A stretch of 45,220 nt of DNA, from the IMG/VR virus record IMGVR_UViG_3300010354_000006; one strand, 5' to 3'. The notes below the pieces were generated by a model, which saw only the letters and a list, made by a program, of their open reading frames with translations, searched no databases and was not told the origin of the DNA. The position numbers and the translations under genes are program-made. The stretch is from a virus. This document shows positions 7,957 through 45,220 of this stretch, in pieces. How positions within the stretch are numbered: position 1 is the first letter of the stretch; every line of letters begins with the position of its first letter.

Positions 7957-8060
7957 TAATCAAATAACAGTCAAATAAGCAAACGTTCTTCCCAAAACGG
8001 GGATTCCCGTTTCGGGAATAACTAACCCCTACCAAATCAAATAAGAGGTAAAATGTAAGC

Positions 8061-8477
8061 ATGACGATTTTAAACCGCCAATTAACACCTAACATAAGCC
8101 TCTATGAGCTTCTTTACACCCCAACTGTAAACAAAGCTGAAATAGCCCCGCTCATTGAGCAGGCTTGGAGTATTGAGGTAGATAGAAACTTAACTAAACT
8201 TGCTACTGCTTTGCAGATCATTAGAGATTATTTTGGTAAACCTTTAATCATCACGAGTGGCTTTAGACCTGTAACTTGGGAATTAAAAAGAAATAGAAGC
8301 GGTAAATCCCAACATACTAGCGGACTAGCTGCTGATTTTAGGGTCTCAGGCGTGCCACTTTCAGAAGTCTATGCTTTTGTTAATGCGACTTTTAAAAAAG
8401 GTGGTAGAGCTATAAACCCTGTAGCAAATTTTATTCACTTAGATTTAAGACCAGAATATGCCACTTGGACTTATTAA
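8061..8477 (+). CDS. Peptidase M15 family (LAS-type zinc peptidase), endolysin-like
   Basis: SGFRP, SQHTSGLAADF and FIHLD blocks give the H..D...H zinc-ligand pattern of M15 peptidases. Confidence 0.6.
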   Translation: MTILNRQLTPNISLYELLYTPTVNKAEIAPLIEQAWSIEVDRNLTKLATALQIIRDYFGKPLIITSGFRPVTWELKRNRSGKSQHTSGLAADFRVSGVPLSEVYAFVNATFKKGGRAINPVANFIHLDLRPEYATWTY

Positions 8478-12632: not shown

Positions 12633-12772
12633 GTTAATTTGTGTAAGTTAAAGCCAATAAAAGCCCCATTGATTGCCCTGCTAAAGATGGAGTTTCCCCT
12701 GTTACGGCTTGCTCAATCATTAAATCCAATTCTAGGTCTAAACTATTCCCCATTACTTTAAGTTTACTCTAT

Positions 12773-13555
12773 ATGTCTTATAATAAGAACATGAGTTTAT
12801 CTAACCTGTTAGACAAGATAAAAAAAATCCCAGTTCTTAAGAAAAACGAAGAAGAAGAGTTGGCTTCTTGGTTTAATTCCAATGAATTAGCAAGACCAAT
12901 TTATGAAAAGATTTTAATTTATCATAACTTAAGATTGGCTAGGCATATTGCAAATAGATTTATAGACAGGGGTTATGAGCTAGAAGATTTAATTTCAGAA
13001 GCTGTTACAGGTTTAAAGCGTGCTGCTGAAAAGTTTAATCCAAAACTAGGCTATAGATTTAGCACTTACGCTGGGCAATGGATTAACCAACGAATCCAAA
13101 AGTTTATTCAAACTTCTTCAACGATTAAAATTCCCGTATTGAAATATTACGCAATTCAAGAGCTGCATAGCCTACTTAATGTTGAACCACTAGAGACTAT
13201 TAGAGAAAAATTAAAGCTTTCAAAAAATCAATTTAATAAATTATACCAAGCCTACTCAAGCCAATTAGTTGAGTCTATAGATGTACCTTTGAATGACCAT
13301 GAATTAATTAAAGAAAGTATCCCTTTTGCCTCAAAAGAATATGATGATCTTTCGGAAAATTTAGAATACTTCTTATCTCAAATCCCCAAAGATGAATACC
13401 CTATAGTCCTAAGTTATCTAAATCAAGAGTTTACTAAAAATAAACTATGCGAAATTTATAACTTAACCTTTATTGAATTAAATCAAATACTGAACCGCAA
13501 TGTAACCTTCTTAAAAGAATCTTTGCGAGGGGATTACGAAGCCTTAAGACTTTGA
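12773..13555 (+). CDS. Sigma-70 family RNA polymerase sigma factor
   Basis: Region 2 signature ...AAEKFNPKLGYRFSTYAGQWINQRIQKFI... (FSTYA.WWI.Q consensus) and a C-terminal helix-turn-helix-like segment. Confidence 0.75.
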   Translation: MSYNKNMSLSNLLDKIKKIPVLKKNEEEELASWFNSNELARPIYEKILIYHNLRLARHIANRFIDRGYELEDLISEAVTGLKRAAEKFNPKLGYRFSTYAGQWINQRIQKFIQTSSTIKIPVLKYYAIQELHSLLNVEPLETIREKLKLSKNQFNKLYQAYSSQLVESIDVPLNDHELIKESIPFASKEYDDLSENLEYFLSQIPKDEYPIVLSYLNQEFTKNKLCEIYNLTFIELNQILNRNVTFLKESLRGDYEALRL

Positions 13556-13864
13556 TTCAAAGAATCTTAATGTACCATCAGTAGTAGCCCTGATAACTGC
13601 TATATGCGTAATGTTTGAGTCAATACCAAAACTATATACTGCCCCTGCTGCTAGGTACGTGCTTGATGTAGTGGCTACTACCGTACTATCACCAGCTTCA
13701 ATGTAGCAGTTTTGGTCTGCTACCATTGCTGCTAAAATTCTTGTTTTTGAGTTAAATGGTGTCGCATTTCTTGCACTTGTCGCAGTAAAAGAGATTGCGT
13801 GCGTTGCTCCACCTAAAATAGCTACTGGTGTTGCTGATGTTCCTCTTGGTCCTAGTCCGCTCAT
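13544..13864 (-). CDS. Hypothetical protein (106 aa), Ala/Thr/Ser-rich
   Basis: ORF track; 3' end overlaps sigma gene 3' end. Confidence 0.4.
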   Translation of the reverse strand: MSGLGPRGTSATPVAILGGATHAISFTATSARNATPFNSKTRILAAMVADQNCYIEAGDSTVVATTSSTYLAAGAVYSFGIDSNITHIAVIRATTDGTLRFFESKS

Positions 13865-13902
13865 GTTTTAAGTTTATCTCTTTTTACCGCTCTTTTTCAT
13901 AA

Positions 13903-14172
13903 TTAACACTTCCATCTCTTTCTAGCCTTGCAAATCCTTTTTTCAGGGGTTTTAGAACAATCAATATTAAAGTCGTTCATTTGCCCTTTGCTTCTAGCAC
14001 AGTATGATTTCTTCCTAGCTCCGCCTTGTGGTTGAGGTGCTTGCAAGTTAGAACCTGTAGCTGCATTATAAGCTTTACGCCCTTTTTCTGTCAAACCGCC
14101 TTTATTAGATTTATGCTCTTTCTTGAAATTAAAGTTTTCTTTAGCTACTGCTTTGCCTTTATTTGGTTTCAT
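13903..14172 (-). CDS. Small strongly basic Lys/Arg-rich protein (89 aa)
   Basis: Composition read directly. Confidence 0.45.
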   Translation of the reverse strand: MKPNKGKAVAKENFNFKKEHKSNKGGLTEKGRKAYNAATGSNLQAPQPQGGARKKSYCARSKGQMNDFNIDCSKTPEKRICKARKRWKC

Positions 14173-14420
14173 TTCAACCCTTCTAACGCTGCTACCAAAG
14201 CGTTTTTTAAAGTCTCAGGGATTTTACCTGTTTGAAGATCTAACTCAACCTGAGCTTTAATCAGAGACAGATCTTCTTCCGTCAAACCTTCATCATCCAA
14301 GATATAAAGCTCTAAAGCTTTAGACTCTAAAAAATATTTATTCGCTATGTCGAAAAGTGGCGTACCGATTAAAGTCCTTACCAAATTTTTCATTCTAATT
14401 CTATATAACCCTTCTGTCAT
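14169..14420 (-). CDS. Hypothetical protein (83 aa)
   Basis: ORF track. Confidence 0.4.
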   Translation of the reverse strand: MTEGLYRIRMKNLVRTLIGTPLFDIANKYFLESKALELYILDDEGLTEEDLSLIKAQVELDLQTGKIPETLKNALVAALEGLK

Positions 14421-16105
14421 AATAAACCTAAAGCTCCGTTATCATTTAAACTCAACAATGTACTTGATAAAGCCATTCCTACGTACTCCCTTTGAGAGCC
14501 AGATAAACCTAAACCGCCATTAGGGCTTACGTGGTAAGCTTGTCCTGGGATTAGTCCAGAAGCTACCTGAGTACTATAACCCGAGTACATTGAGGATAGA
14601 TTAACTTTTTTTGTCTGCCCCGTAGTTCCAGATTCTGCTGCTATACCTACAGGTAAAGGGTTTGGCAGTACCCTGTTCCCGTAAACATATAATACGGAGA
14701 ACTGAACTGTAGAGCCAAATGTATTATTAATTACGACAAGTATAGGTGTATTAACCGCTCCGTTTTTAACTATGTAGTTTTTACTGTATGATTGGTAAGA
14801 ACCAAATCCGAAAGAGGATACATTGGAATAATAGTTTTGCGAAAAACTTTTTAGTTGTCTCTGCCCTATTCTTGTTACATCTAACAGTAGAGAATTTCTA
14901 TAAATTAAATCCCCGTTTATATTAAGCCTCCAGCCAGCATTAGCCAGAACAGTAGCATCAGGAAATCCGAAACTGTTCTGTCCATCTACTTCTGTAATAG
15001 TAGTTGAATTTACTGTAACTAAACGGGATTGAACACCTCCAGACTGCCCTAGAAATAAATATAGTCCTGAACTTATAGGTTCTACACTAAAACGTCCGTT
15101 AGCATCAGTTCCATAATATAAGTATTCTGCACCAGACCCTGAAAAAGCGGTGCCTGTAATGCCTCGACATAGTATAGCGGTGTCAGTGGATCCGCCTTTG
15201 CGATAACCAAAAAAGCAATTGTTGTTAGTTACATCGTGATAAAACCCTGTATCTTCAGTCGTAGCGGTCTGCCCGTTGTCTGTACCTACTCCAAGTACAG
15301 ACCCAAAAGTCATAGTAGTACCTGATACAGTACCTAAACATGCCTCGTAAGAAGAAGATCCAGCACTGTCTGTCGAATAATAAATAATGTGTTGCCCAGA
15401 TATAGTATCTACAGATAAACCTCTAATCCTACCTCTATCGTTAGTGCTTCCAGAGGCTACTATGTTGTTAGCTGAACCTACTGATATAGAAGTACCTGTT
15501 AAAGTTAAAACTCTTGTCTGTAAAGATGGGCTATCTGATCTAGCATAAACCGCTACTGCAACAGTCCCTGAATGTTTATTTATGCCGAAAGAAGTATTTC
15601 CTGAAGCTGTATTAGATACGTTAGTTGCTACCGATACCGCTGAGCCTACTGTAGGGTTAGCCCCAGATACGTCTATAGCTAAAGCACTTAGTGTATTTGT
15701 TGCTGATCTATACAGCAAAACTGCTGTAGAAGCACCTACTTCAATAAGCTTAGAGCCTAAAGGGGCTGTACCCCACGCTATACCTGTAGCTAATTCTGTA
15801 CTCCAAGTAATATCGCCTGTATTGGGATTTACAGCACCAGTTTTGATAAAGATATTCGTCCCGTTAGTATAAGCGTAAACAAGCTTATTGGTTGTTTCAT
15901 GGAAGCATATAGCACCTTTACCAGTGAATGACGGGAATAGTCGTAAATCTGCAAGTAGATCACCGTTGAGCGGTCTGCCTACTGGAGTTTTAAAAACTTG
16001 TCCATTAGCAGATAAAATTAAAGAATCCCCAGTGTTTACGTTTTCCCCTAGTACGAAATTATGCGAAGTTTTTCCGCTGCTGAATAAATCACTTGCACTT
16101 GCCAT
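14417..16105 (-). CDS. Putative tail fibre / tail spike-like protein (562 aa), Ser/Thr/Gly-rich
   Basis: Composition and position. Confidence 0.45.
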   Translation of the reverse strand: MASASDLFSSGKTSHNFVLGENVNTGDSLILSANGQVFKTPVGRPLNGDLLADLRLFPSFTGKGAICFHETTNKLVYAYTNGTNIFIKTGAVNPNTGDITWSTELATGIAWGTAPLGSKLIEVGASTAVLLYRSATNTLSALAIDVSGANPTVGSAVSVATNVSNTASGNTSFGINKHSGTVAVAVYARSDSPSLQTRVLTLTGTSISVGSANNIVASGSTNDRGRIRGLSVDTISGQHIIYYSTDSAGSSSYEACLGTVSGTTMTFGSVLGVGTDNGQTATTEDTGFYHDVTNNNCFFGYRKGGSTDTAILCRGITGTAFSGSGAEYLYYGTDANGRFSVEPISSGLYLFLGQSGGVQSRLVTVNSTTITEVDGQNSFGFPDATVLANAGWRLNINGDLIYRNSLLLDVTRIGQRQLKSFSQNYYSNVSSFGFGSYQSYSKNYIVKNGAVNTPILVVINNTFGSTVQFSVLYVYGNRVLPNPLPVGIAAESGTTGQTKKVNLSSMYSGYSTQVASGLIPGQAYHVSPNGGLGLSGSQREYVGMALSSTLLSLNDNGALGLL

Positions 16106-16107
16106 AA

Positions 16108-16830
16108 TTAAACTCTCCCTATAGGCGTTATCGCCACATCCCAGTTAGTACCATTACTTGTAATTTCATAAATAGCGTTTATATCCATCGTGAAATTAGC
16201 TGCATCTCCTGCTATTTGCTCTGAGCCTGCTCTTACTAAGGTTGATGGAGTAGCTGTAAAATCTTGCCCTATTGCTGGTTTCACCCTAAAATTAATTGTT
16301 GCAGTTGGCGAAGGTAACTGAACATTTAATCCAGTATTAATAGAATATTGCCCTTTATCAGTAGCGTTAAAGTTAATAGCTTTAGTTTCCCATGGCGTAA
16401 ATGTTCTTGGGTCAGTCCAAGTACCGTTACCCTCTAGCCATGTCGCAGCAGTACCACCAGCAGGAACATTACCAGCAGTAAAAGCCACACTTTGAACATA
16501 GCCTTTAGAAGCTACTTCGGTATCACTAGAGCCATCTGCATAACGTACCTTCCCCGAGCCATTGCAGTCTAAAACTATATCGCCATTTAAAGTAGCTTCA
16601 TTAATCACATTAACTGCAATCGTTGTAAAAGTTTGCAAAGCAGTATAAACACTAGCCACGCCAAGTTGTGGCATTTGATCTGCTATTACATTATTTAAAG
16701 TTATTAATTGACCAAGTAAATAAGAAAAGTTACCATTTGCATCAACTGCATCAATAAAATTACCAGCACCATTAGTAAACGTAGTTAATGAGCTGGATGA
16801 TGGAGTTGTTAAATCGCCTTTAGTTGCCAC
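16108..16830 (-). CDS. Putative fibre-associated structural protein (240 aa); GTG start
   Basis: ORF track; start codon is GTG at 16828-16830. Confidence 0.4.
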   Translation of the reverse strand: MATKGDLTTPSSSSLTTFTNGAGNFIDAVDANGNFSYLLGQLITLNNVIADQMPQLGVASVYTALQTFTTIAVNVINEATLNGDIVLDCNGSGKVRYADGSSDTEVASKGYVQSVAFTAGNVPAGGTAATWLEGNGTWTDPRTFTPWETKAINFNATDKGQYSINTGLNVQLPSPTATINFRVKPAIGQDFTATPSTLVRAGSEQIAGDAANFTMDINAIYEITSNGTNWDVAITPIGRV

Positions 16831-16852
16831 TCTATCTTAAGTTTACTCTAAT

Positions 16853-23318: not shown

Positions 23319-24500
23319 TTAAAACCCTCCTGTTTGAATCATCCTTGGAGTTGTTTGTATTTTAGCCAAGTTGGTACCACGTGTATCTTGCCTGCCAGCT
23401 TGATCTTTTAAGCCACCATAAATAAATTCAGCAGCAGCAGGATCAGTGAAACCACCATAAGCTGTTGGGGAAACAATACCAGAAGTTAAACTACTAAATC
23501 CACCTGAACCTAATTGAGCTCCAGCACCAAGTAAATTTCTAAATGATTGCCCTCTACGTGCAGCACGAGCATTTAATATATCTTGCCTCATCCCTGCTTG
23601 GCTTGCTTCTAAATCTACTATATTTCTACTTAATGGGTCAAATGCCCCACGCTGTAAAGCTTGATTCGATAAACTAGAAGAACTAAATCCACGCTGCGTT
23701 AAATCGCCCATTGTTCTTTGGAGATCATCTCTTAAAGTTTCTTGAACTCTCCTTCTTCCTAGTGTGTATTGAGAATCTAAATCTGCTTGATCTTGAGCCG
23801 TTAAACCTTCTTGATCCATTGATCCAGTAAGGTTAGAAAAATAATCTCTTAAATTTTGTTTATACTCTAATGCACCTTTAACATCTTCACCGATTAAAGA
23901 TGTTAAATCTCCCATCTCACTGAAAATATCACCAGTGTTTTCTATCCCTTGCCCTCTTAATTCATCAGATGGAGTTGTTAAAAAAGGCTCTTCTTCTGCT
24001 ACTACATATTTCCCAGTAGCAGGATCATATTTATAACCGCCACCAGTCAAGGCTTCCTTGACTAAACCCCTACCCTTTTTGCCAAGCTCACCTTGTCTAA
24101 ATCTTTCAATAAAAGCTTTTTGTTGGGCAGGAGTTTTTGATTGGAAATCTGCCGACTCAGCAATAGCTCTAATCTTGTCATCTTGTCTTTGCTTTCTTGT
24201 TTGTGGGGTTAAACTTCCAATCCCAACCCCTGAACCAGAAGCCACGCCACCTCTAAGGATGTCGCTTCCTCTTTTGAAACCTTGGTTAATATCACTACGC
24301 CCTTTGTTGATATCTGCTTCTGTAATTCCTGATGTGAACTTTGGAGCAGCTCCACCGATAGCACCCTCAGCCGCACCGCCAAGAACACCAGCAACAATCC
24401 CACCAGCTGGACCGGCTACCGCAGTACCAATACCAGTAGCAATAGCTGAACCAACGCCCTTAGTCTTAATATTTGCCGAAGAATTAGCAATTTTAGCCAT
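23319..24500 (-). CDS. Putative internal virion protein (393 aa), Gly/Ala-rich hydrophobic N-terminus
   Basis: ORF track; composition. Confidence 0.45.
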   Translation of the reverse strand: MAKIANSSANIKTKGVGSAIATGIGTAVAGPAGGIVAGVLGGAAEGAIGGAAPKFTSGITEADINKGRSDINQGFKRGSDILRGGVASGSGVGIGSLTPQTRKQRQDDKIRAIAESADFQSKTPAQQKAFIERFRQGELGKKGRGLVKEALTGGGYKYDPATGKYVVAEEEPFLTTPSDELRGQGIENTGDIFSEMGDLTSLIGEDVKGALEYKQNLRDYFSNLTGSMDQEGLTAQDQADLDSQYTLGRRRVQETLRDDLQRTMGDLTQRGFSSSSLSNQALQRGAFDPLSRNIVDLEASQAGMRQDILNARAARRGQSFRNLLGAGAQLGSGGFSSLTSGIVSPTAYGGFTDPAAAEFIYGGLKDQAGRQDTRGTNLAKIQTTPRMIQTGGF

Positions 24501-24517
24501 ATATATTAAGTATAATC

Positions 24518-26530: not shown

Positions 26531-27234
26531 TTCCTATCCCTTGATCTAACTCTAAATTTCCTACGACCTTTAATCTTTAAATTAAACTTGTTTTTAATAA
26601 TTGCTTTATTTAATGCCTCTTTTGCATCCATATCTAAAAGCTGTCTCCATTCAGGATCGCCTTTAGTTTTTCTTAACCATGCGTGAGTTGCCAAAACTAA
26701 AGCCCTTTGAAAGCTAGTAGGGAAAATAATATTATTTGCTATATTGCTCGCTGTAATTCTAAGCATTTCATAATTGTAAAAAGCTTGAATAGTATAAGCC
26801 GCATCAGGAACAGGAGCTAAATTAACTACTCCCTCGTCAATATAATAATAAAGCGGTCTGCCTTGGTTAGTGTTAATAAACTCTAATTCTTTGCCTTCTG
26901 TCTTAGAACGAGGTAAAATCTCAGAATAGTTTTCTCCTGCTTCAACTAAAACTAATTTAGTTATTAACTGAGGATCCCAGCCGCCTACTGGAGCTGTTAA
27001 AACACTATTGCCTAGTGTAGCTGTTAGATTTTCTACAGGATTATAAAAATCATAATCAGAAGAAGATTCTAAAACCCACTGTACCGCTTGGTTTACGGCT
27101 TGAATACCTTTTAAAGCATTGCCGCTTGTCGCAGATGTTGCTTCAATTAAAGGGATTGGAGAATCAGCCTCCAATCCCCTAGCATCGTTTAATAAATTAA
27201 GATACGTTATTGGCAGTTTTTTGCTCCTCTTCAA
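26524..27234 (-). CDS. Putative head-tail adaptor / tail protein (236 aa)
   Basis: Position only. Confidence 0.35.
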   Translation of the reverse strand: MKRSKKLPITYLNLLNDARGLEADSPIPLIEATSATSGNALKGIQAVNQAVQWVLESSSDYDFYNPVENLTATLGNSVLTAPVGGWDPQLITKLVLVEAGENYSEILPRSKTEGKELEFINTNQGRPLYYYIDEGVVNLAPVPDAAYTIQAFYNYEMLRITASNIANNIIFPTSFQRALVLATHAWLRKTKGDPEWRQLLDMDAKEALNKAIIKNKFNLKIKGRRKFRVRSRDRNW

Positions 27235-28003
27235 ATTGCTCTGAAATCATTTGCTGCAATTCTCCACGATCCTTATTTTGTTTTTTTGCTTTTTGAGTAG
27301 CAGGCATTGCATCCCTAACCGTTTGAGCTTTTTTACCATCGTAATAACTCTTAAGTAATACTTTTAAACCTAGAGATTCAGTTTCTTCTAATGTCTCAGC
27401 TTCAATCGCTTCTCTCTCTTTGATAGCTCCCATTAATTGTTCATACTCTTGTTGAGTTAAAACATACTCACCGCCATCAGAAGATAATTTTCTGCGTCTT
27501 AAAGCATTTTCAAATTCACCCATCTTCATTAATTCTTTGATTAACCATAATGGGAAATGCCAGTTTTTCTGAGAACCCCAATTCTGAATCATAATGTCGG
27601 CAATATCAGGCTCATACCATATCACCTGATCTGATTGAGTTAAGTTTAATTTGTAAAACTCTAATAGCCTCTTAAATGCTTGGTGCATTGGCATATAATC
27701 TACTTCATCCCCACTTCTTTCGATAAGGTTAAAGTAGCGATTTGATGGAACTCTCCATACTGGATTAACCATCCAATTTTTATCTTTTAAATTTGGAACG
27801 CCCCTGTAAACAATTTCTCTAAATTCAGGAGAACTTGCAATAAAATTACATTCATCCCCAAAACCTAAGCGTAATGGAGTTTTATACTCTCCATCTTGAA
27901 CTAAAACTTTTTCCAATAAACCTGTTGCGGGATGCGGTTTATTGTAAAAACGCTTCATATCCCCATCATACTCTAAAGCTCCACCTAATACTAAAAATGG
28001 CAT
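27197..28003 (-). CDS. Hypothetical structural protein (268 aa)
   Basis: ORF track. Confidence 0.4.
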   Translation of the reverse strand: MPFLVLGGALEYDGDMKRFYNKPHPATGLLEKVLVQDGEYKTPLRLGFGDECNFIASSPEFREIVYRGVPNLKDKNWMVNPVWRVPSNRYFNLIERSGDEVDYMPMHQAFKRLLEFYKLNLTQSDQVIWYEPDIADIMIQNWGSQKNWHFPLWLIKELMKMGEFENALRRRKLSSDGGEYVLTQQEYEQLMGAIKEREAIEAETLEETESLGLKVLLKSYYDGKKAQTVRDAMPATQKAKKQNKDRGELQQMISEQFEEEQKTANNVS

Positions 28004-28086: not shown

Positions 28087-29322
28087 TTAGATAGCCACTA
28101 GGTTATTTCTGTAACCTAAAGTCCATGGAGCTTTTACGCATTCTGTAAATGTAGTACCATATTTTTGTTTGATTCCATCACCATCTTCAAATGGAGTACC
28201 AACTTTCTCAAACATTCTCATAACATTGATGATTACGTTATCGTTCATTTGAGGAATGTAAATTACTTCATTGTCTCCAATACCATCAGAAACAAGAGCA
28301 TTTAATTTACAGCCATTAACAAGCATGTGGTAAGCTTGCGATGAACCTAAACCGCCATCAGCGTTTTGTGCGTTTTCTCTTTGGAAACGAACTTGAGATT
28401 GTAAAGCAGATAAGCCATTCTCTGATACATACATATCAATTTCAGTTAGATCCGTTGGTCTAGTAAATACTTTAGGGCCTTGTAATGCTCCACGATCTCT
28501 GAGAGCGATTACGTCAGCTTCTACAGTAGCCTCAGTTAAGCTCGCACTACCACCAGTAACCGTGTATCCACCACCGTTTTCAATGTAGAATTTCACGCCA
28601 CCTGCTTGAGCGCCAGTACCAGAAGTTCTAGTAAAACCATCTGCGGTTAATGGGTTTGAACCCTCTAAGCGAATATCCTTAAGTGCTTTTCTTTCAAGCA
28701 TACGGATTATAGTAGGAAGTAAATTTTCTTCTTGGTTGCTAAAATCCAACTCATTGATACCAGCGTAATTGAATTTACCATTTGCTACTGGACCAGCGAT
28801 TTGAATGTCGTGGAAGAAATTAGAGTAGAAATTGTAATCAGAACCTGCTAATGCTACGTCATTATTTGCCCCGAAACCATCACCAATCTCGCCTGATCTA
28901 TCTGTGAATAGTTGCGTTCCAGAAGCCAAGCTTGTTGGGTCAGAGTAGCCACTTAAAAGCTGAACAGTTAAACTTGTAAATGTTCCATTCACTCCAGTGA
29001 TTAACCACTTTGCACTACCAGATTGATTAACTAATCTTGTTACCCCTGGCTTAATTTCAGTATCAAAAGGGTTAGCTCTTGTCGGTGCGTTTACTGTTAT
29101 AGTTGTAGCACCTGCTGAATAACTACCAGATAAAGTTAATACACCCCTTGAAATTGCTTGTTGAAACCATTGAACTTTAGAACCCATTTTGCTCACAGTT
29201 CTCATGTGTTTCATCAAGAAAGGCGCTCTAACTCCAGAGGTTTTAATGATGTCCGATTGGACATCTTCCATATACGTTCTTGCATCGTTAATTGAAAGAA
29301 CACTATTAATTGGGTTTACCAT
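28087..29322 (-). CDS. Putative major capsid protein (411 aa)
   Basis: Position after scaffold-like gene, size, AAGGAG RBS, followed by terminator; fold not verifiable by eye. Confidence 0.5.
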   Translation of the reverse strand: MVNPINSVLSINDARTYMEDVQSDIIKTSGVRAPFLMKHMRTVSKMGSKVQWFQQAISRGVLTLSGSYSAGATTITVNAPTRANPFDTEIKPGVTRLVNQSGSAKWLITGVNGTFTSLTVQLLSGYSDPTSLASGTQLFTDRSGEIGDGFGANNDVALAGSDYNFYSNFFHDIQIAGPVANGKFNYAGINELDFSNQEENLLPTIIRMLERKALKDIRLEGSNPLTADGFTRTSGTGAQAGGVKFYIENGGGYTVTGGSASLTEATVEADVIALRDRGALQGPKVFTRPTDLTEIDMYVSENGLSALQSQVRFQRENAQNADGGLGSSQAYHMLVNGCKLNALVSDGIGDNEVIYIPQMNDNVIINVMRMFEKVGTPFEDGDGIKQKYGTTFTECVKAPWTLGYRNNLVAI

Positions 29323-29385
29323 TTGTGAAATATCTCCTTAGACTTGCCCCTTTCTTAAGGGGTACATCTAAAGTATATTTCTGTT

Positions 29386-30412: not shown

Positions 30413-32683
30413 TTATCTAAACTTTGGTGGTTGCGCTCCAGGATTTTGAGCATATTTTAATTGCAATTCTTGCTCAAATTCTGCCTGCTGCTGCCTAGCC
30501 GCTTCATCTCTTCTTTTCTCTGCTTCGTCTTTTTTAAGTTTATTTAATGGAATTGATAGAGTTCTAGCAAAATATTCTACCACTGAACTCATATCATACT
30601 CTGCTAATACCTCTGGTGCTGCCTGTAAGAAACCAACAAATTCTTTTAAATTTTGCCTTGCATATTCCTTACTTAAAGTTGTTTTTGAGCCAGTAATTTG
30701 AACATCTGATTCTTTAATTGGGTAAACTAACAAATCGTAATATAAACCTAATGATGGCTCTGGGATTTCTTGAACATTTCTATTAATTTCTTTTTGCTTG
30801 CGTTCAATTTCTTTTTGTTTTAATTTAACATCATTTAAGGCTTGGTCTCGTTGAGCCTTTTCGTTTTGCTCATGCTGCATTTTAAGCTGTTCAATCTCTG
30901 CTGCATTTGGAGTTTGCTCTAAAGTTTCAGGGTTTATCGTAACGTCTGGTGGTACAAAATCTTTAGGTGGAGAAGCTGCAAATTGTTGAAGCTGCTCAAT
31001 CTCTCCGAATAAGCCTTCTATTGTATCTATAATTTCAGAGTTTTTATCAAGTTCGTTTTGATTCTCTTCATAAAACTGCTCATACATTTCTTCTATGCCT
31101 GAATAGTTTAATAAACGCTCAAATAAAGGATTTTCAAGCAATATCGCTTCACGCATTGCAGGATCTTCGATCTCTTCTATTTGTTGTCTTAAAAATTGTT
31201 GAGTTAAAATAATTCGGTTACTAACAGAAGGTTGTAAAACTTCTTCGTCAAATTGGTTAGAAGCATCAACTATATTTAATTGCCCGCTTGATACGACTTC
31301 TTTAATCTCGCTTGCAGAAGTCCGAGAAGAAGTAACCCCCGACATTTGAGCTTTACTTAAGCCTGAACTTTGCTCAACAATATTAGTTACTACCTGCGTT
31401 AAAGCACCATATTGAGAAACCACTTGGTTATATTCAGGTGGAACTAAAGCCTTAACATCAAAGCCTTCATACATTGCCCCTGGCTCAAATGCTGGGATTT
31501 CAGTCCTGTTCTCATAATCATAATCTTGATTGCGAAGGAGATTTAATGGTGGATCGCATAACAAACCAACAACCCTAGAAGTTCCCGAAATTAATTGATT
31601 TAATAATAATTGATGAGACAAGAAAGGTCTAATAAAGCCTTGATGATAAAACACTCCAGGTAAAGTTGTTCCTGCTGCTGCTAAACATATCCCGTGGTCG
31701 TGTGGGCTTACATCTTGATACGCTGCTAAAATAACTAAATTATCTTTAAAGCCAAAAGCTTCTAGGTCTGTTCCCTCTACTGTTTCTGGTGCTTGTATTG
31801 CAGTAACATAAACACCTTTAGCAGTAATTGGGTTTTTGCGATCTTGCCTATCTTCTAAATAAACACTTGGTAAAAATATGTCATAGCAGCGAACTTGTCC
31901 ATAAGGTGCTTGAGTTGCTACATCAGTTAAACGATTAGTTGAGCCAATAAATTCATTATCGCCTAAATCATTGTAGTTTAACACGGGCTTAATTGCTTCT
32001 ATTAATTCAGGGTTTAAATCTTCCCTATTTAATAAATCGCTGTAATTAATATCGTATTCAAGAATTAAATTCGACTCTCTCCAATTATCCGTCATTGGAT
32101 AAATGCTAAATCTTCCGATACCTGGAGTTTTTATATTAACAATATTCTCTGAGGGGTCGTAATAATGAACAATGCCAGTATTGCCATAGGCTACTAGCTC
32201 GGCTATTGCTGCTGAATATTTCTTTTTAAAATTAAATCTTTGATTTTCAGTTTTAATAATATTTATCCAAGCTTGATTAACTTCGGGTAAAAACTTTTTT
32301 AATCCCATCTTGTAAAATTGAGAGCTAAAATTTCTGTTAATATCTACATAATCTCCGCTTGTTGGGAAGCACGCATTTTTAATATTGTTTACCCAAGTCC
32401 TATAAATGCGATAAAGGATAGGGTCTTTTAATGTTGAAAATTCATCAATATCTTCTTCTTCAACAACACGTTCAATTAAATTATCATTGTTAAGTCTTTG
32501 ATAAATTACGCTATTACGATCAGATAAATCAACATCTTCATCTTGCAAGATAACCTTATCTATAATTTCTCTTGCATTGTAAAAATCGTTATTGTTTTTT
32601 ACTGAATTAATTAGGGTATTAATATGACTAGAGAAGGCTTCTAGTTGGCTATCGGGTATTTCGTTTATATCAAGCTTATTCAC
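30413..32683 (-). CDS. Putative portal protein (756 aa) with charged coiled-coil C-terminal extension
   Basis: Size and position between terminase and scaffold/capsid. Confidence 0.45.
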   Translation of the reverse strand: MNKLDINEIPDSQLEAFSSHINTLINSVKNNNDFYNAREIIDKVILQDEDVDLSDRNSVIYQRLNNDNLIERVVEEEDIDEFSTLKDPILYRIYRTWVNNIKNACFPTSGDYVDINRNFSSQFYKMGLKKFLPEVNQAWINIIKTENQRFNFKKKYSAAIAELVAYGNTGIVHYYDPSENIVNIKTPGIGRFSIYPMTDNWRESNLILEYDINYSDLLNREDLNPELIEAIKPVLNYNDLGDNEFIGSTNRLTDVATQAPYGQVRCYDIFLPSVYLEDRQDRKNPITAKGVYVTAIQAPETVEGTDLEAFGFKDNLVILAAYQDVSPHDHGICLAAAGTTLPGVFYHQGFIRPFLSHQLLLNQLISGTSRVVGLLCDPPLNLLRNQDYDYENRTEIPAFEPGAMYEGFDVKALVPPEYNQVVSQYGALTQVVTNIVEQSSGLSKAQMSGVTSSRTSASEIKEVVSSGQLNIVDASNQFDEEVLQPSVSNRIILTQQFLRQQIEEIEDPAMREAILLENPLFERLLNYSGIEEMYEQFYEENQNELDKNSEIIDTIEGLFGEIEQLQQFAASPPKDFVPPDVTINPETLEQTPNAAEIEQLKMQHEQNEKAQRDQALNDVKLKQKEIERKQKEINRNVQEIPEPSLGLYYDLLVYPIKESDVQITGSKTTLSKEYARQNLKEFVGFLQAAPEVLAEYDMSSVVEYFARTLSIPLNKLKKDEAEKRRDEAARQQQAEFEQELQLKYAQNPGAQPPKFR

Positions 32684-33710: not shown

Positions 33711-33759
33711 GTTTAAAAATCTCCTTAAGGGTAAGTTACACTTTAAGTATATTACTATT

Positions 33760-37291: not shown

Positions 37292-37466
37292 TATTTAAAT
37301 TGATTAATTCCTCAAATGCCCCAAGGTCTTCTCTAACTACAACCCAAGAAGGTGGGATTATGCCTACTACTTCCGTCCAATCAGTAGCGAAACTGGAATC
37401 AAACTGAAACCTATAACTACTACCAACAGTAAAAGTATCTGTTAAATTTCTTTCCATAATCAACAA
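37236..37466 (-). CDS. Hypothetical protein; track start is TTG, likelier ATG at 37455-37457
   Basis: ORF track; first gene of minus-strand block. Confidence 0.3.
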   Translation of the reverse strand: MLIMERNLTDTFTVGSSYRFQFDSSFATDWTEVVGIIPPSWVVVREDLGAFEELINLNNVARVFGRNFKKAVEDGE

Positions 37467-38195
37467 TATACCACGATATATAAAAATATACCACTGTTAA
37501 TTTAAATATATCTCAGCGGGACTTTATCCTTCTAGCTCTCACTAGCCTGCATTGAAAACTCTAGTCTTTCGGTTTAATCACATAGATTTTTATGTGGTTA
37601 GTTATTGCTTGTTTAAATCGGTTTAAATCAATTTCTTTTTATTCTTGGGATGATTATGGCTTTAATAAGGTTTTCTTTTAACCTGTGGCAGAATAAAGGG
37701 GTTTTGTGAAGTTTTCTAGTTGGTTGTTAGGTTGGTTTATTACATTGCTGAAATTTGAAATTTTTTATGTGTAGCGAGAGGGGATGCAGTGATAATTTAA
37801 AGGGGTGGCATGGGGTAAAGGATGTTACCCGTAAATACTTTTCTGCTTTTATTACTCTAGAATTACCCTTATACAGTGCCATATTCAAGATAACATTATA
37901 TTATCTTAAGTAAGAACGTGATTGTAGAGCCATTTCAGTATGTTGTTAAAGATAATATACAGAAATTAAGGGGTAGCTACCGAGTATTGGGGGGTATCTT
38001 ATAGTGATTAATGATTGATGACTGATGATCTCTCTCTTATATATTCTTTATCGCTTGCATGTGTTACCCTGCTCGACACATTAACATCATTTCTCATTCT
38101 AAACAAAAACGAGAAACGAATAAAACTCATTCTCAGAAAGCAACTATTCAATTTTACCTACCTACTAGTAGGTAAAAGTTATACCTAACAATTAA

Positions 38196-38288
38196 GCCTA
38201 AAGTGGACTATAGGGTTTAATTAATATAAAGTCTAAAGTGGACTATAGGGTTACAGTAGTAATAAAGCCTATAGTGGACTATAGGGTT
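38196..38288. repeat. Three direct copies of a 22-bp motif GYCTAWAGTGGACTATAGGGTT (38196-38217, 38231-38252, 38267-38288)
   Basis: Read directly; 35-36 bp periodicity; adjacent 12-bp palindrome CCTACTAGTAGG at 38161-38172. Confidence 0.85.
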
Positions 38289-38516
38289 ATAAAGGCTTTC
38301 TAATCAACATTCCTTACTTATCGGCGTAACGATTAAAAACAAGCGAGGCTAGTATTAGTATCTTTTTGTTGTTTTACTTATGACATAAGACAATAGAACA
38401 TTAAATATATTTAATATATCACACCATAACTATATAATCCCTTGAAACCTAGTCCAGTAGTGCATTTCAAGGATTTATAAGTTATTTGATTGATAAAAAA
38501 ATATTTAATAAAAGTG

Positions 38517-38544
38517 TTGCTTTCTTATGACATTATGGTATAAT
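38517..38544 (+). promoter_or_regulatory. Sigma70-like early promoter: -35 TTGCTT (38517-38522), 16-bp spacer, extended -10 TGGTATAAT (38536-38544)
   Basis: Hexamers read directly; ATG at 38551 is 6 nt after -10, implying a leaderless transcript. Confidence 0.5.
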
Positions 38545-38550
38545 AGAAGT

Positions 38551-38739
38551 ATGGAAAGAAAACAAATTGTTAGTCAAGAGTTTAGTCTAAGATTCATAGG
38601 CTTTAAAAACATAGTAGAAGCTAACTTAGCTATGTTTACTCAGTATCCAGATACTGATACTGGATACAATTTGTTGCACTCGTGCAACAAAAAAAACAAT
38701 ATAGAGCCATGTGAAGATGGCTTTATTTTTTATTGTTAA
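38551..38739 (+). CDS. Small early protein (62 aa), possibly leaderless
   Basis: In-frame ATG inside track ORF 38527..38739, positioned at predicted transcription start. Confidence 0.35.
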   Translation: MERKQIVSQEFSLRFIGFKNIVEANLAMFTQYPDTDTGYNLLHSCNKKNNIEPCEDGFIFYC

Positions 38740-38748
38740 TTAGACCAA

Positions 38749-38778
38749 GACCTAAGCAAGTCTTTAAACTGCTTAAGG
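38749..38778 (+). promoter_or_regulatory. Intercistronic element A copy 1 (imperfect palindrome overlapping RBS)
   Basis: GACCTAAGCAAGTCTTTAAACTGCTTAAGG; TAAGCA / TGCTTA inverted repeat. Confidence 0.6.
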
Positions 38779-38786
38779 AAAAAGAA

Positions 38787-38942
38787 ATGAAAAACAATCA
38801 ACTAATAGAAAAATACAATATCACAGCTAAGGATATAGCAGTAATCGAGGATCATCTTCATTATGGTTATGGTTACGAGTATTTAGAAGCTAGGTTCAGT
38901 TTCTCTGAGTTAGAGGTAATTCTAGACACTTGGAGCATTTAA
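38787..38942 (+). CDS. Small early protein (51 aa)
   Basis: ATG at 38787 after AAGGAAAAAG RBS; track ORF began at TTG 38733. Confidence 0.35.
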   Translation: MKNNQLIEKYNITAKDIAVIEDHLHYGYGYEYLEARFSFSELEVILDTWSI

Positions 38943-38952
38943 TTATTAGGAT

Positions 38953-38982
38953 GACCTGAGCAAGTCTTTAAACTGCTTAAGG
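38953..38982 (+). promoter_or_regulatory. Intercistronic element A copy 2
   Basis: GACCTGAGCAAGTCTTTAAACTGCTTAAGG. Confidence 0.6.
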
Positions 38983-38991
38983 AGTAAAGAA

Positions 38992-39225: not shown

Positions 39226-39477
39226 ATGACGATATATTACGCAATAAGCCGAGACATTAAAGAAGCTCAAACAGGGCTTAATAGAATAAGTCACTTAGAT
39301 GATTATTCAGGAACTCCAGAAGAGAAATTAAACGATTTAATCGATGACCACTTAAACTACGTGAATGTATGGAGTGGCAGTTTAGATTTTGCTTACAGCA
39401 GTACAAGTAAGTTTCCTGAATCGGAAAGGTATATTTTAATAACTGAGACTGACACTGGCTTAAAAAGAATTCAATAA
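39226..39477 (+). CDS. Hypothetical early protein (83 aa)
   Basis: ORF track; ATG follows upstream stop. Confidence 0.4.
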   Translation: MTIYYAISRDIKEAQTGLNRISHLDDYSGTPEEKLNDLIDDHLNYVNVWSGSLDFAYSSTSKFPESERYILITETDTGLKRIQ

Positions 39478-39483
39478 ACCAAA

Positions 39484-39512
39484 GACCTAGCAAGTCTTAA
39501 AACTGCTTCAGG
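39484..39512 (+). promoter_or_regulatory. Intercistronic element A copy 3
   Basis: GACCTAGCAAGTCTTAAAACTGCTTCAGG. Confidence 0.55.
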
Positions 39513-39522
39513 AGATAAAAAA

Positions 39523-45081: not shown

Positions 45082-45186
45082 ATGAACGAACTAGAAGAAT
45101 TAAAAACAGTGCAATTAATTATTAATTTTGTCGTAGTAATAGCTATCCTAGCTGTAGCCGTAACAGTTGGGAGGTACTTGGGATGA
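45082..45186 (+). CDS. Small membrane peptide (34 aa, single predicted TM helix); stop overlaps ATG of the 65-aa ORF (equivalent to 86..283)
   Basis: AAGGAAAAG RBS; hydrophobic core IINFVVVIAILAVAVTV. Confidence 0.3.
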   Translation: MNELEELKTVQLIINFVVVIAILAVAVTVGRYLG

Positions 45187-45220
45187 GAGAATTAGACCGC
45201 CAAAAATGGCTTCCAGTGGA
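45098..45220. repeat. Second copy of the 123-bp terminal direct repeat
   Basis: Exact match to 1-123. Confidence 0.9.

Follow-up and report, generated by a model that had tools for sequence, protein, structure and literature searches.

The viral DNA of IMG/VR record IMGVR_UViG_3300010354_000006, a stretch of 45,220 nucleotides (nt) that was analysed at its full length and is called the window below, carries a short recurring motif in the non-coding gaps of its late gene cluster. Comparison of the copies with each other and with related phages makes it probable that this motif, which on the minus strand has the conserved core TAWACTTWA, forms the -10-type core of six late promoters, which are probably specific for a sigma factor encoded by the phage itself and would give leaderless or nearly leaderless mRNAs at four of the six sites. 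The promoter class may be written as a purine-rich stretch with AG, followed by TA(A/T)ACT and T(A/T)A, in the late-cluster gaps of a complete SU10-like genome. Promoter function, start points, dependence on the phage sigma and a feedback on sigma synthesis are all predicted from sequence, and the link to the phage sigma is plausible.

All positions are those of the whole window. Its first 123 nt (1-123) are repeated exactly at 45098-45220, so that 45,097 bases are unique. The assembly, circular or terminally redundant and about 45.1 kb long, is thus complete, and a scan of the window covers the whole genome. A long minus-strand block (8743-37457) contains the terminase, portal-sized, capsid, SU10-type adaptor and tail genes, and is interrupted by one plus-strand gene, which encodes the sigma-70-family protein. 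An earlier sequence-only reading of this DNA had noticed three copies of the motif on the plus strand, and all three were located again:

12758-12770 and 16837-16849, written on the plus strand: TTAAGTTTACTCT
13868-13881, written on the plus strand: TTAAGTTTATCTCT, with a 1-nt insertion relative to the other two copies

These copies all sit in short non-coding gaps directly before start codons of the minus strand. In that orientation they read (A/G)GAG(A)-TAAACTTAA, 3-6 nt upstream of the starts of structural genes, and relaxing the core to TA(A/T)ACT-T(A/T)A adds three sites, which belong to a gene of 393 amino acids (aa), to the putative major capsid gene and to the gene after the terminase. 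The six sites are as follows:

Site 1, 12758..12770, minus strand: AGAG-TAAACTTAA-agta-ATG, with hexamer TAAACT from 12766 to 12761, 4 nt before ATG 12753
Site 2, 13868..13881, minus strand: AGAGA-TAAACTTAA-aac-ATG, 3 nt before ATG 13864 of the 106-aa gene (13544-13864)
Site 3, 16837..16849, minus strand: AGAG-TAAACTTAA-gataga-GTG, 6 nt before GTG 16830 of the 240-aa gene (16108-16830)
Site 4, 24506..24514, minus strand: TATACTTAA after AGGAT, 5 nt before ATG 24500 of the 393-aa gene (23319-24500)
Site 5, 33743..33751, minus strand: TATACTTAA after AGTAA, in the gap after the large terminase gene, 32 nt before ATG 33710
Site 6, 29369..29377, minus strand: TATACTTTA after AGAAA, in the gap that precedes the putative major capsid gene (28087-29322)

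The spacing between hexamer and start codon at sites 1-4 is 7, 6, 9 and 8 nt (at site 2 exactly 6 nt and then ATG), and no Shine-Dalgarno (SD) sequence lies downstream of the motif, which is the layout of a -10 box next to an open reading frame (ORF), about 6-9 nt from the start and without SD. Sites 5 and 6 do not share this layout and have leaders with an SD sequence, AAGGAG at 33726-33721 for site 5 and AAGGAG at 29339-29334 for site 6, whose 46-nt leader also contains the hairpin CCCCTT-aaga-AAGGGG (29362-29347). The putative capsid gene thus has a strong SD; an intrinsic terminator lies 3' of it at 28076-28057.

Three copies had been held very unlikely to arise by chance. Judged by count this was too strong, since the 13-mer with at most one mismatch has 2 matches where 0.36 are expected, a modest excess, and 2 or more were reached in 3 of 100 shuffles; judged by position and conservation it stands. 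The minus-strand late region contains 8 matches to TA[AT]ACTT[AT]A, and 6 of them fall in the gaps that make up 1.3% of this region (binomial 1.6e-10, an optimistic value, as the pattern was defined after the sites had been seen), and a copy is present in six of the nine non-coding gaps of the late cluster. The motif is real and not random, and position together with conservation carries this conclusion. A recent duplication of a longer segment was considered and rejected, as the flanks of the copies are unrelated. Two more sense copies of TAAACTTAA lie inside genes, at 27640-27648 (minus strand, in 27197-28003) and at 30534-30542 (minus strand, in 30413-32683), and may be internal promoters or chance matches.

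Alignment of the six sites leaves TA.ACT-T.A as the only common part, plus AG 4-5 nt upstream. The hexamer TA[AT]ACT is invariant at the six sites and in all relatives, with T, A and T fixed at positions 1, 2 and 6; these are T-12, A-11 and T-7, the invariant positions of a -10 element, and the sigma-70 pattern TANNNT is thus present in the gene sense. Flanks vary both upstream (AGAG, AGGA, GGAG, GAGG, AGAA) and downstream (TAA, TTA, TAG), and the CTCT end of the plus-strand motif, minus-strand AGAG, is part of this variable portion. No base is common upstream of about -17 in the six-site alignment, which leaves no shared -35 or UP-like element; the sole -35-like match, TTGAGA-16-TAAACT at site 3, is displaced by an insertion in the relative L039. 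A TG extension is absent from all six sites, and AG stands at its position. The sites would accordingly be placed in a -35-independent class without TG extension.

The motif is non-palindromic, and 6 of 6 sites carry it in one direction with respect to the genes. The sequence-only reading had regarded the plus strand as functional, with promoters for antisense RNA or with binding sites for a DNA-binding regulator, and this has to be turned around: the minus-strand reading is gene-sense at all six sites, as are the boxes of the relatives described below. The reverse complement of TAAACTTA does contain TAAGTT, which fits TAnnnT, and at site 1 the plus-strand reading overlaps the -35 region of the sigma promoter. 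However, TATACTTAA of sites 4 and 5 becomes TAAGTA on the plus strand and does not resemble a -10 box there, the corresponding boxes of relatives (TAGAAT etc.) are readable only in the gene sense, and neither an ORF on the plus strand nor a structured RNA follows the motif copies. Antisense promoters on the plus strand were rejected on account of orientation, start-codon spacing and the homologous boxes. Regulator binding sites are disfavoured because the motif is non-palindromic, uniformly oriented and invariant at -10-like positions. Altogether, function on the plus strand is very improbable.

Two further explanations place the motif in the mRNA. An endonuclease that cuts the polycistronic late mRNA just upstream of start codons would suit copies in the gaps of one long same-direction cluster, in sequence that is A/U-rich and single-stranded. 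However, RNA folds of 91-nt windows at five sites were no better than shuffles (z -0.5 to +1.3) and had no common structure, and no known RNA families or tRNAs were found in the window. A processing site would leave the -10-type invariants and the replacement by canonical boxes in relatives unexplained, and site 1 follows a gene of the opposite strand; we find this explanation scarcely credible. The second would be a translation-initiation enhancer like epsilon of T7 gene 10 (UUAACUUUAA), with the motif loading ribosomes on genes without a good SD. The sequence UAAACUUAA resembles epsilon (PMC9590205), four sites lie 3-6 nt from the start codon with only a weak purine run upstream, and the region is A/U-rich and unstructured. 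However, sites 5 and 6 lie 32-46 nt from an ATG that has its own strong SD, so that the motif there cannot belong to a ribosome-binding site. Moreover, the invariant positions are those of a -10 hexamer, relatives that lack the sigma gene substitute textbook -10 boxes at a fixed 6 nt and not an A/U-rich enhancer, and site 1 has no upstream gene in the same orientation as transcript source, unless it is reached by antisense read-through of the sigma gene. An enhancer of this kind therefore appears improbable.

Conservation was examined in relatives drawn from IMG/VR and metagenome contigs, whose loci are labelled L###; close cultured relatives gave no useful match in GenBank phage DNA, with terminase identity of only 24-30% and no match for the 393-aa protein. 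The motif is kept at the same positions, including sites 2 and 3, in every locus that carries the sigma gene (sigma 76-100% identical). In the intergenic region of site 1, which is non-coding on both sides, the only invariant parts are ATTATA, which is the -10 box of the sigma gene, and TAAACTTA(A/G), corresponding to TAAACTTAA of the window; the spacer and the purine run (AGAG, AGGA, GGAG, GAGG, AGAA) vary. A start codon (ATG or GTG) always follows 4 nt past the motif, and the ORF behind it has 7, 13, 15, 19, 39-40 or 50 codons; in the window it is a short ORF of 39 aa (12634-12753, minus strand), back to back with the sigma promoter. One subgroup keeps the peptide LDLELDLM with synonymous changes, and the next gene begins 1 nt past the stop of this ORF or overlaps it, which suggests translational coupling from a putative leaderless mini-ORF.

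The other sites behave in the same manner. Site 2 keeps its motif unchanged though the upstream gene differs among relatives (HNH_3, DUF6321 and others). At site 3, L039 has an insertion of about 45 nt between the upstream stop codon and the motif, which leaves AATTAGAGTAAACTTAA intact and moves everything upstream of AATTAGAG; because this displaces the upstream sequence, no -35 element at a fixed distance can be required there. Site 4 is conserved in 8 related contigs and site 6 is also conserved in relatives. Site 5 has TATACT invariant in 11 sequence variants, with TAA or TTA as the next three bases, and TATACT is present after the terminase gene in L028 (58% identity) as well. L050 (70% identity) carries both the sigma gene and the TAAACTTAA/TATACTTAA set.

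Relatives without the sigma gene at this locus give a further comparison. The family of the 240-aa protein encoded behind site 3 is wide. Five relatives with 45-68% identity in this protein, L045-L049, have their late genes in the same order, with SU10_MCP and SU10_adaptor domains among them, and have no sigma gene at the syntenic place or elsewhere in the approximately 20 kb read from each. A diverged sigma copy elsewhere in these genomes is unlikely because a protein search for sigma homologues found none between 39% and 76% identity; a metagenome scan with the sigma alignment added a single locus, L037 (31% identity), which was not used. Homologous gene starts in the sigma-less relatives have ordinary extended -10 boxes (TGnTAGAAT, GGGTACAAT, TATAAT) 6-8 nt before ATG:

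Sigma-less relatives, box and start: TAGGGTAGAAT-gtaatt-ATG
Sigma-less relatives, box and start: TAGGGTACAAT-gtaggt-ATG
Sigma-less relatives, box and start: GTGGTAGAAT-8 nt-ATG
Sigma-less relatives, box and start: GGTATAAT-aaactt-ATG
Sigma-less relatives, box and start: TGATAAAAT-agagcc-ATG
Sigma-less relatives, box and start: GTGATAGTAT-gatagt-ATG

Over 85 gene starts in L045-L049, TAnnnT ends exactly 6 nt before ATG 12 times, compared with 0-6 times at the other offsets from 0 to 20. Every locus that covers sites 2 and 3 and lacks the sigma gene there has a host-type box instead of the motif. The elements of the window probably drive sense late transcription, because sigma-less relatives carry gene-sense boxes (TAGAAT, TACAAT, TATAAT) at the homologous places. 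The shared positions would then be promoter positions that give leaderless mRNAs, at which the sigma clade has presumably replaced the host-type box with its own. A different conserved block, TTTGCAATAAATATGTAAAGCCTTTTATCATATTGGTT-ATG, was observed before the final late-cluster gene (about 170 aa) in L045-L050, L039 and L043 (e.g. L047 17195-17266); it is found with or without sigma and fits a classical -35/-10 promoter ending 7 nt before ATG.

These boxes also bear on the question of which sigma reads the six sites. It might be the host primary sigma, aided or not by a phage activator, that reads the minus-strand promoters, while the phage sigma has other targets or another role; we regard this as conceivable but unlikely. 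TAAACT and TATACT match TATAAT at 4-5 of 6 positions, the sigma-less L046 and L048 have TGnTAAACT, 6 nt and ATG before a homologue of the site-2 gene, the syntenic module of L038 has TATATT at the capsid-gene site, and the gaps are explained without any other recurrent motif. However, six sites without TG and without -35 would be very weak for a primary sigma, and the extra conserved bases, namely C at hexamer position 5 and then T-W-A, are absent from the host-type boxes of the same genome. In addition, the motif class is present only where the sigma gene is present, and the phage sigma needs cognate promoters, and no other candidate motif recurs in the late-cluster gaps. Recognition by the phage sigma is thus the reading we prefer, and the suggestion of the sequence-only reading, a transcription signal with a probable link to this sigma, fits all findings here.

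Several observations weigh against this assignment. The genome-wide scan, which had been proposed together with the three copies, yielded three further late sites but no excess in total number of the 9-mer TAWACTTWR (15 copies versus 12.4 expected), so that placement alone is unusual. All genomes with the sigma gene belong to a single clade (240-aa protein at least 63% identical), and therefore the co-occurrence of sigma and motif represents one evolutionary event and not many independent ones. Absence of sigma from L045-L049 refers to about half of each genome. The hexamer TAAACT can probably be used by a host sigma, because in L046 and L048, which lack sigma, TGnTAAACT stands before a 109-aa homologue of the site-2 gene. 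Finally, site 3 has GTG 9 nt past the hexamer and site 1 of L002 also has GTG, which is poor for strictly leaderless translation.

The sigma gene and its own promoter are located as follows:

12791..13555, plus strand: phage sigma-70-family gene, 254 aa (Sigma70_r2 of Pfam, 6e-14; PHROG 351, 4e-35)
12779..12784, plus strand: perfect TATAAT, then 6 nt and ATG 12791; 12 base pairs (bp) from the site-1 hexamer on the opposite strand

The gene sits inverted inside the late cluster and shares its last 12 nt (13544-13555) with the 106-aa gene. Its start is most likely ATG 12791 and not ATG 12773, because all homologues begin with MSLS and because the upstream ATG of L004 runs into a stop; the motif, which had been described as ending 2 nt before the sigma ATG, would then end 20 nt before it. 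TATAAT, 6 nt and ATG are kept before the sigma gene in L002, L004, L039-L044 and L050, and this box is predicted to be a host-type promoter of the leaderless kind. Region 2 of the protein aligns with RpoS, RpoD and SigA structures and reads FSTYAGQWINQRIQK where the aligned RpoS has FSTYATWWIRQTIER, with the first W and several specificity positions changed. Most of the residues of regions 2.3 and 2.4 that, by reference to E. coli sigma-70, read the -10 element are retained. A Pfam search of the protein did not detect region 4, and the C-terminal region is too diverged for such detection. A region 2 that is mostly retained but changed in part, with region 4 undetected, would fit a promoter that is -10-like, altered and -35-independent.

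Starts of the leaderless type with host-type boxes occur outside the late promoter class too. Host-like boxes precede other starts on the plus strand, TGgTATAAT-agaagt-ATG 38551 (38536-38553) and TAAAAT-gtaagc-ATG 8061 (8049-8063), the latter opening the Peptidase_M15 lysin gene; ATG 37457 on the minus strand has TGgTATATT-gttgatt-ATG (37455-37473), with 7-nt spacing, and two tandem copies of GTGGTATATT lie at 37465-37500. An SD of the GGAG type, or translational coupling, characterises most other genes.

According to our model, TA(A/T)ACT would act as a -10 element that needs neither -35 nor TG, and transcripts would begin about 7 nt past the hexamer. The predicted start at sites 1-4 would fall on, or 1-3 nt before, ATG or GTG and give leaderless or near-leaderless mRNAs, while sites 5 and 6 would give 32-46-nt leaders with a normal SD. 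The six promoters would most likely be read by host core polymerase with the phage sigma (12791-13555), and the sigma gene itself would be expressed from its host-type TATAAT promoter. The arrangement may also limit sigma synthesis. The late hexamer of site 1 (12761-12766, minus strand) stands back to back with the TATAAT of the sigma gene (12779-12784, plus strand), and two polymerases presumably cannot fit together because the -10 boxes are only 12 bp apart, so that late occupancy would exclude the sigma promoter. Transcription from site 2 would run antisense through the sigma gene, because the 106-aa gene overlaps its 3' end. Promoter exclusion and antisense reading together could turn sigma synthesis down once late transcription is on.

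A wider evolutionary scenario is tentative. An SU10-like podovirus lineage, possibly infecting Melainabacteria, which are non-photosynthetic relatives of cyanobacteria, may have captured a group-1/2-like sigma and rewritten all its late promoters from TGnTAGAAT to AGAG-TAAACTTAA while keeping the leaderless layout, and the inverted sigma gene, overlapping promoters and antisense transcription may form an off-switch. If true, this would be a natural, datable case of sigma/promoter co-evolution together with a self-limiting circuit. The only host clue comes from L038 (JABSOS010000004.1, 41895-63469 of 358477; 35% G+C), a syntenic structural module with a 64% identical terminase that lies in a 358-kb scaffold of a Candidatus Caenarcanales (Melainabacteria) metagenome-assembled genome; this suggests a prophage, and a possible host lineage for the phage group. 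The capsid-gene site of L038 reads TATATT...ATGTA compared with TATACT...ATGTA in the window, and the motif was not found at its post-terminase site.

Other features of the window were observed beside these. From site 3 to site 2 (13903-16105), the stretch that separates the 240-aa gene from the 106-aa gene is a cassette region and hypervariable; comparison of L029-L036 and L039-L050 showed different contents in relatives, namely HNH_3, Endonuclease_7, DUF6321 or a 400-560-aa protein. In the window it includes an 89-aa DUF6321 gene (13903-14172), whose DNA is 83-84% identical over 60-70 nt to cyanomyoviruses S-SRM01 and P-SSM7 and which contains a perfect TTGACA-18-TATAAT on the minus strand (14094..14065). 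The 1-kb non-coding region between the divergent blocks (37458-38550) has three tandem copies of AAGCCTAAAGTGGACTATAGGGTT at 38191-38296, spaced by about 35 nt, which look like operator or iteron repeats. An element of about 50 nt, GACCT(A/G)AGCAAGTCTT(T)AAACTGCTTAAGGAG, has three plus-strand copies before small plus-strand genes (38736-38787, 38940-38991 and 39470-39521), two of which contain TAAACT 17 nt before ATG; these may be weak promoter sites of the same class, a different signal or duplicated gene heads.

If the promoter assignment is right, an uncharacterised family of phage sigmas, from a phage group that is uncultured, gains its cognate promoter. The transcription map would also be complete, in that host-type promoters serve the early genes and the sigma gene while six private promoters serve the late genes. 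Sigma-less sister phages would then offer a natural comparison, in which promoter specificity was swapped and leaderless expression was kept. Moreover, the sigma/promoter pair would be a candidate orthogonal expression module, and leaderless late mRNAs would not be limited to Thermus phages.

The late promoters of T4 that depend on gp55 have the sequence TATAAATA. In function the closest analogue is the group of phiEco32 and 7-11. The phiEco32 sigma, gp36, recognises one 9-bp element, TAATGTATA, in front of middle and late genes, and the sigmas of phiEco32 and 7-11 are described as only distantly related to the sigmaA family (PMC4331800). Our system is similar to phiEco32 in having its own sigma-70-family gene, a motif of about 9 bp in the -10 region without -35 before structural genes, host-type promoters for early and sigma genes, and a SU10-type structural module (SU10_adaptor in the window, SU10_MCP in L047). 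However, the motif here is TAWACTTWA and neither TAATGTATA nor TATAAATA, which points to a different promoter family that works alike, and the sigma, unlike those of phiEco32 and 7-11, resembles group 1/2 (RpoS/RpoD/SigA). In addition, 4 of the 6 promoters abut the start codon, the sigma gene is inverted in the late cluster, and the system is known from sequence.

Experiments in Deinococcus-Thermus have shown that leaderless genes there are driven by a -10 motif TANNNT adjacent to the ORF (PMC12340547), and the middle and late mRNAs of Thermus phage phiYS40 are leaderless (PMC3594737). Similar here are the two classes of starts, with a GGAG-type SD or with TANNNT few bp upstream, the fixed spacing (6-9 nt) without -35 dependence, and the involvement of late phage genes. 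The differences are that this is an uncultured phage of 35% G+C whose sole host clue is Melainabacteria, and that the box of the sigma clade has extra conserved bases, probably read by the phage sigma. The T7 epsilon element is likewise short and A/U-rich, with the core AACUU, and lies near starts of highly expressed late genes; however, epsilon stands upstream of a strong SD in a long leader, whereas four copies here replace the SD position and two are far from it. This likeness is a resemblance only, and the motif is not counted as a member. The promoters are thus of a known kind, combining phage-sigma promoters with the layout of a -10 box next to an ORF, and differ from the known systems in motif sequence and sigma type.

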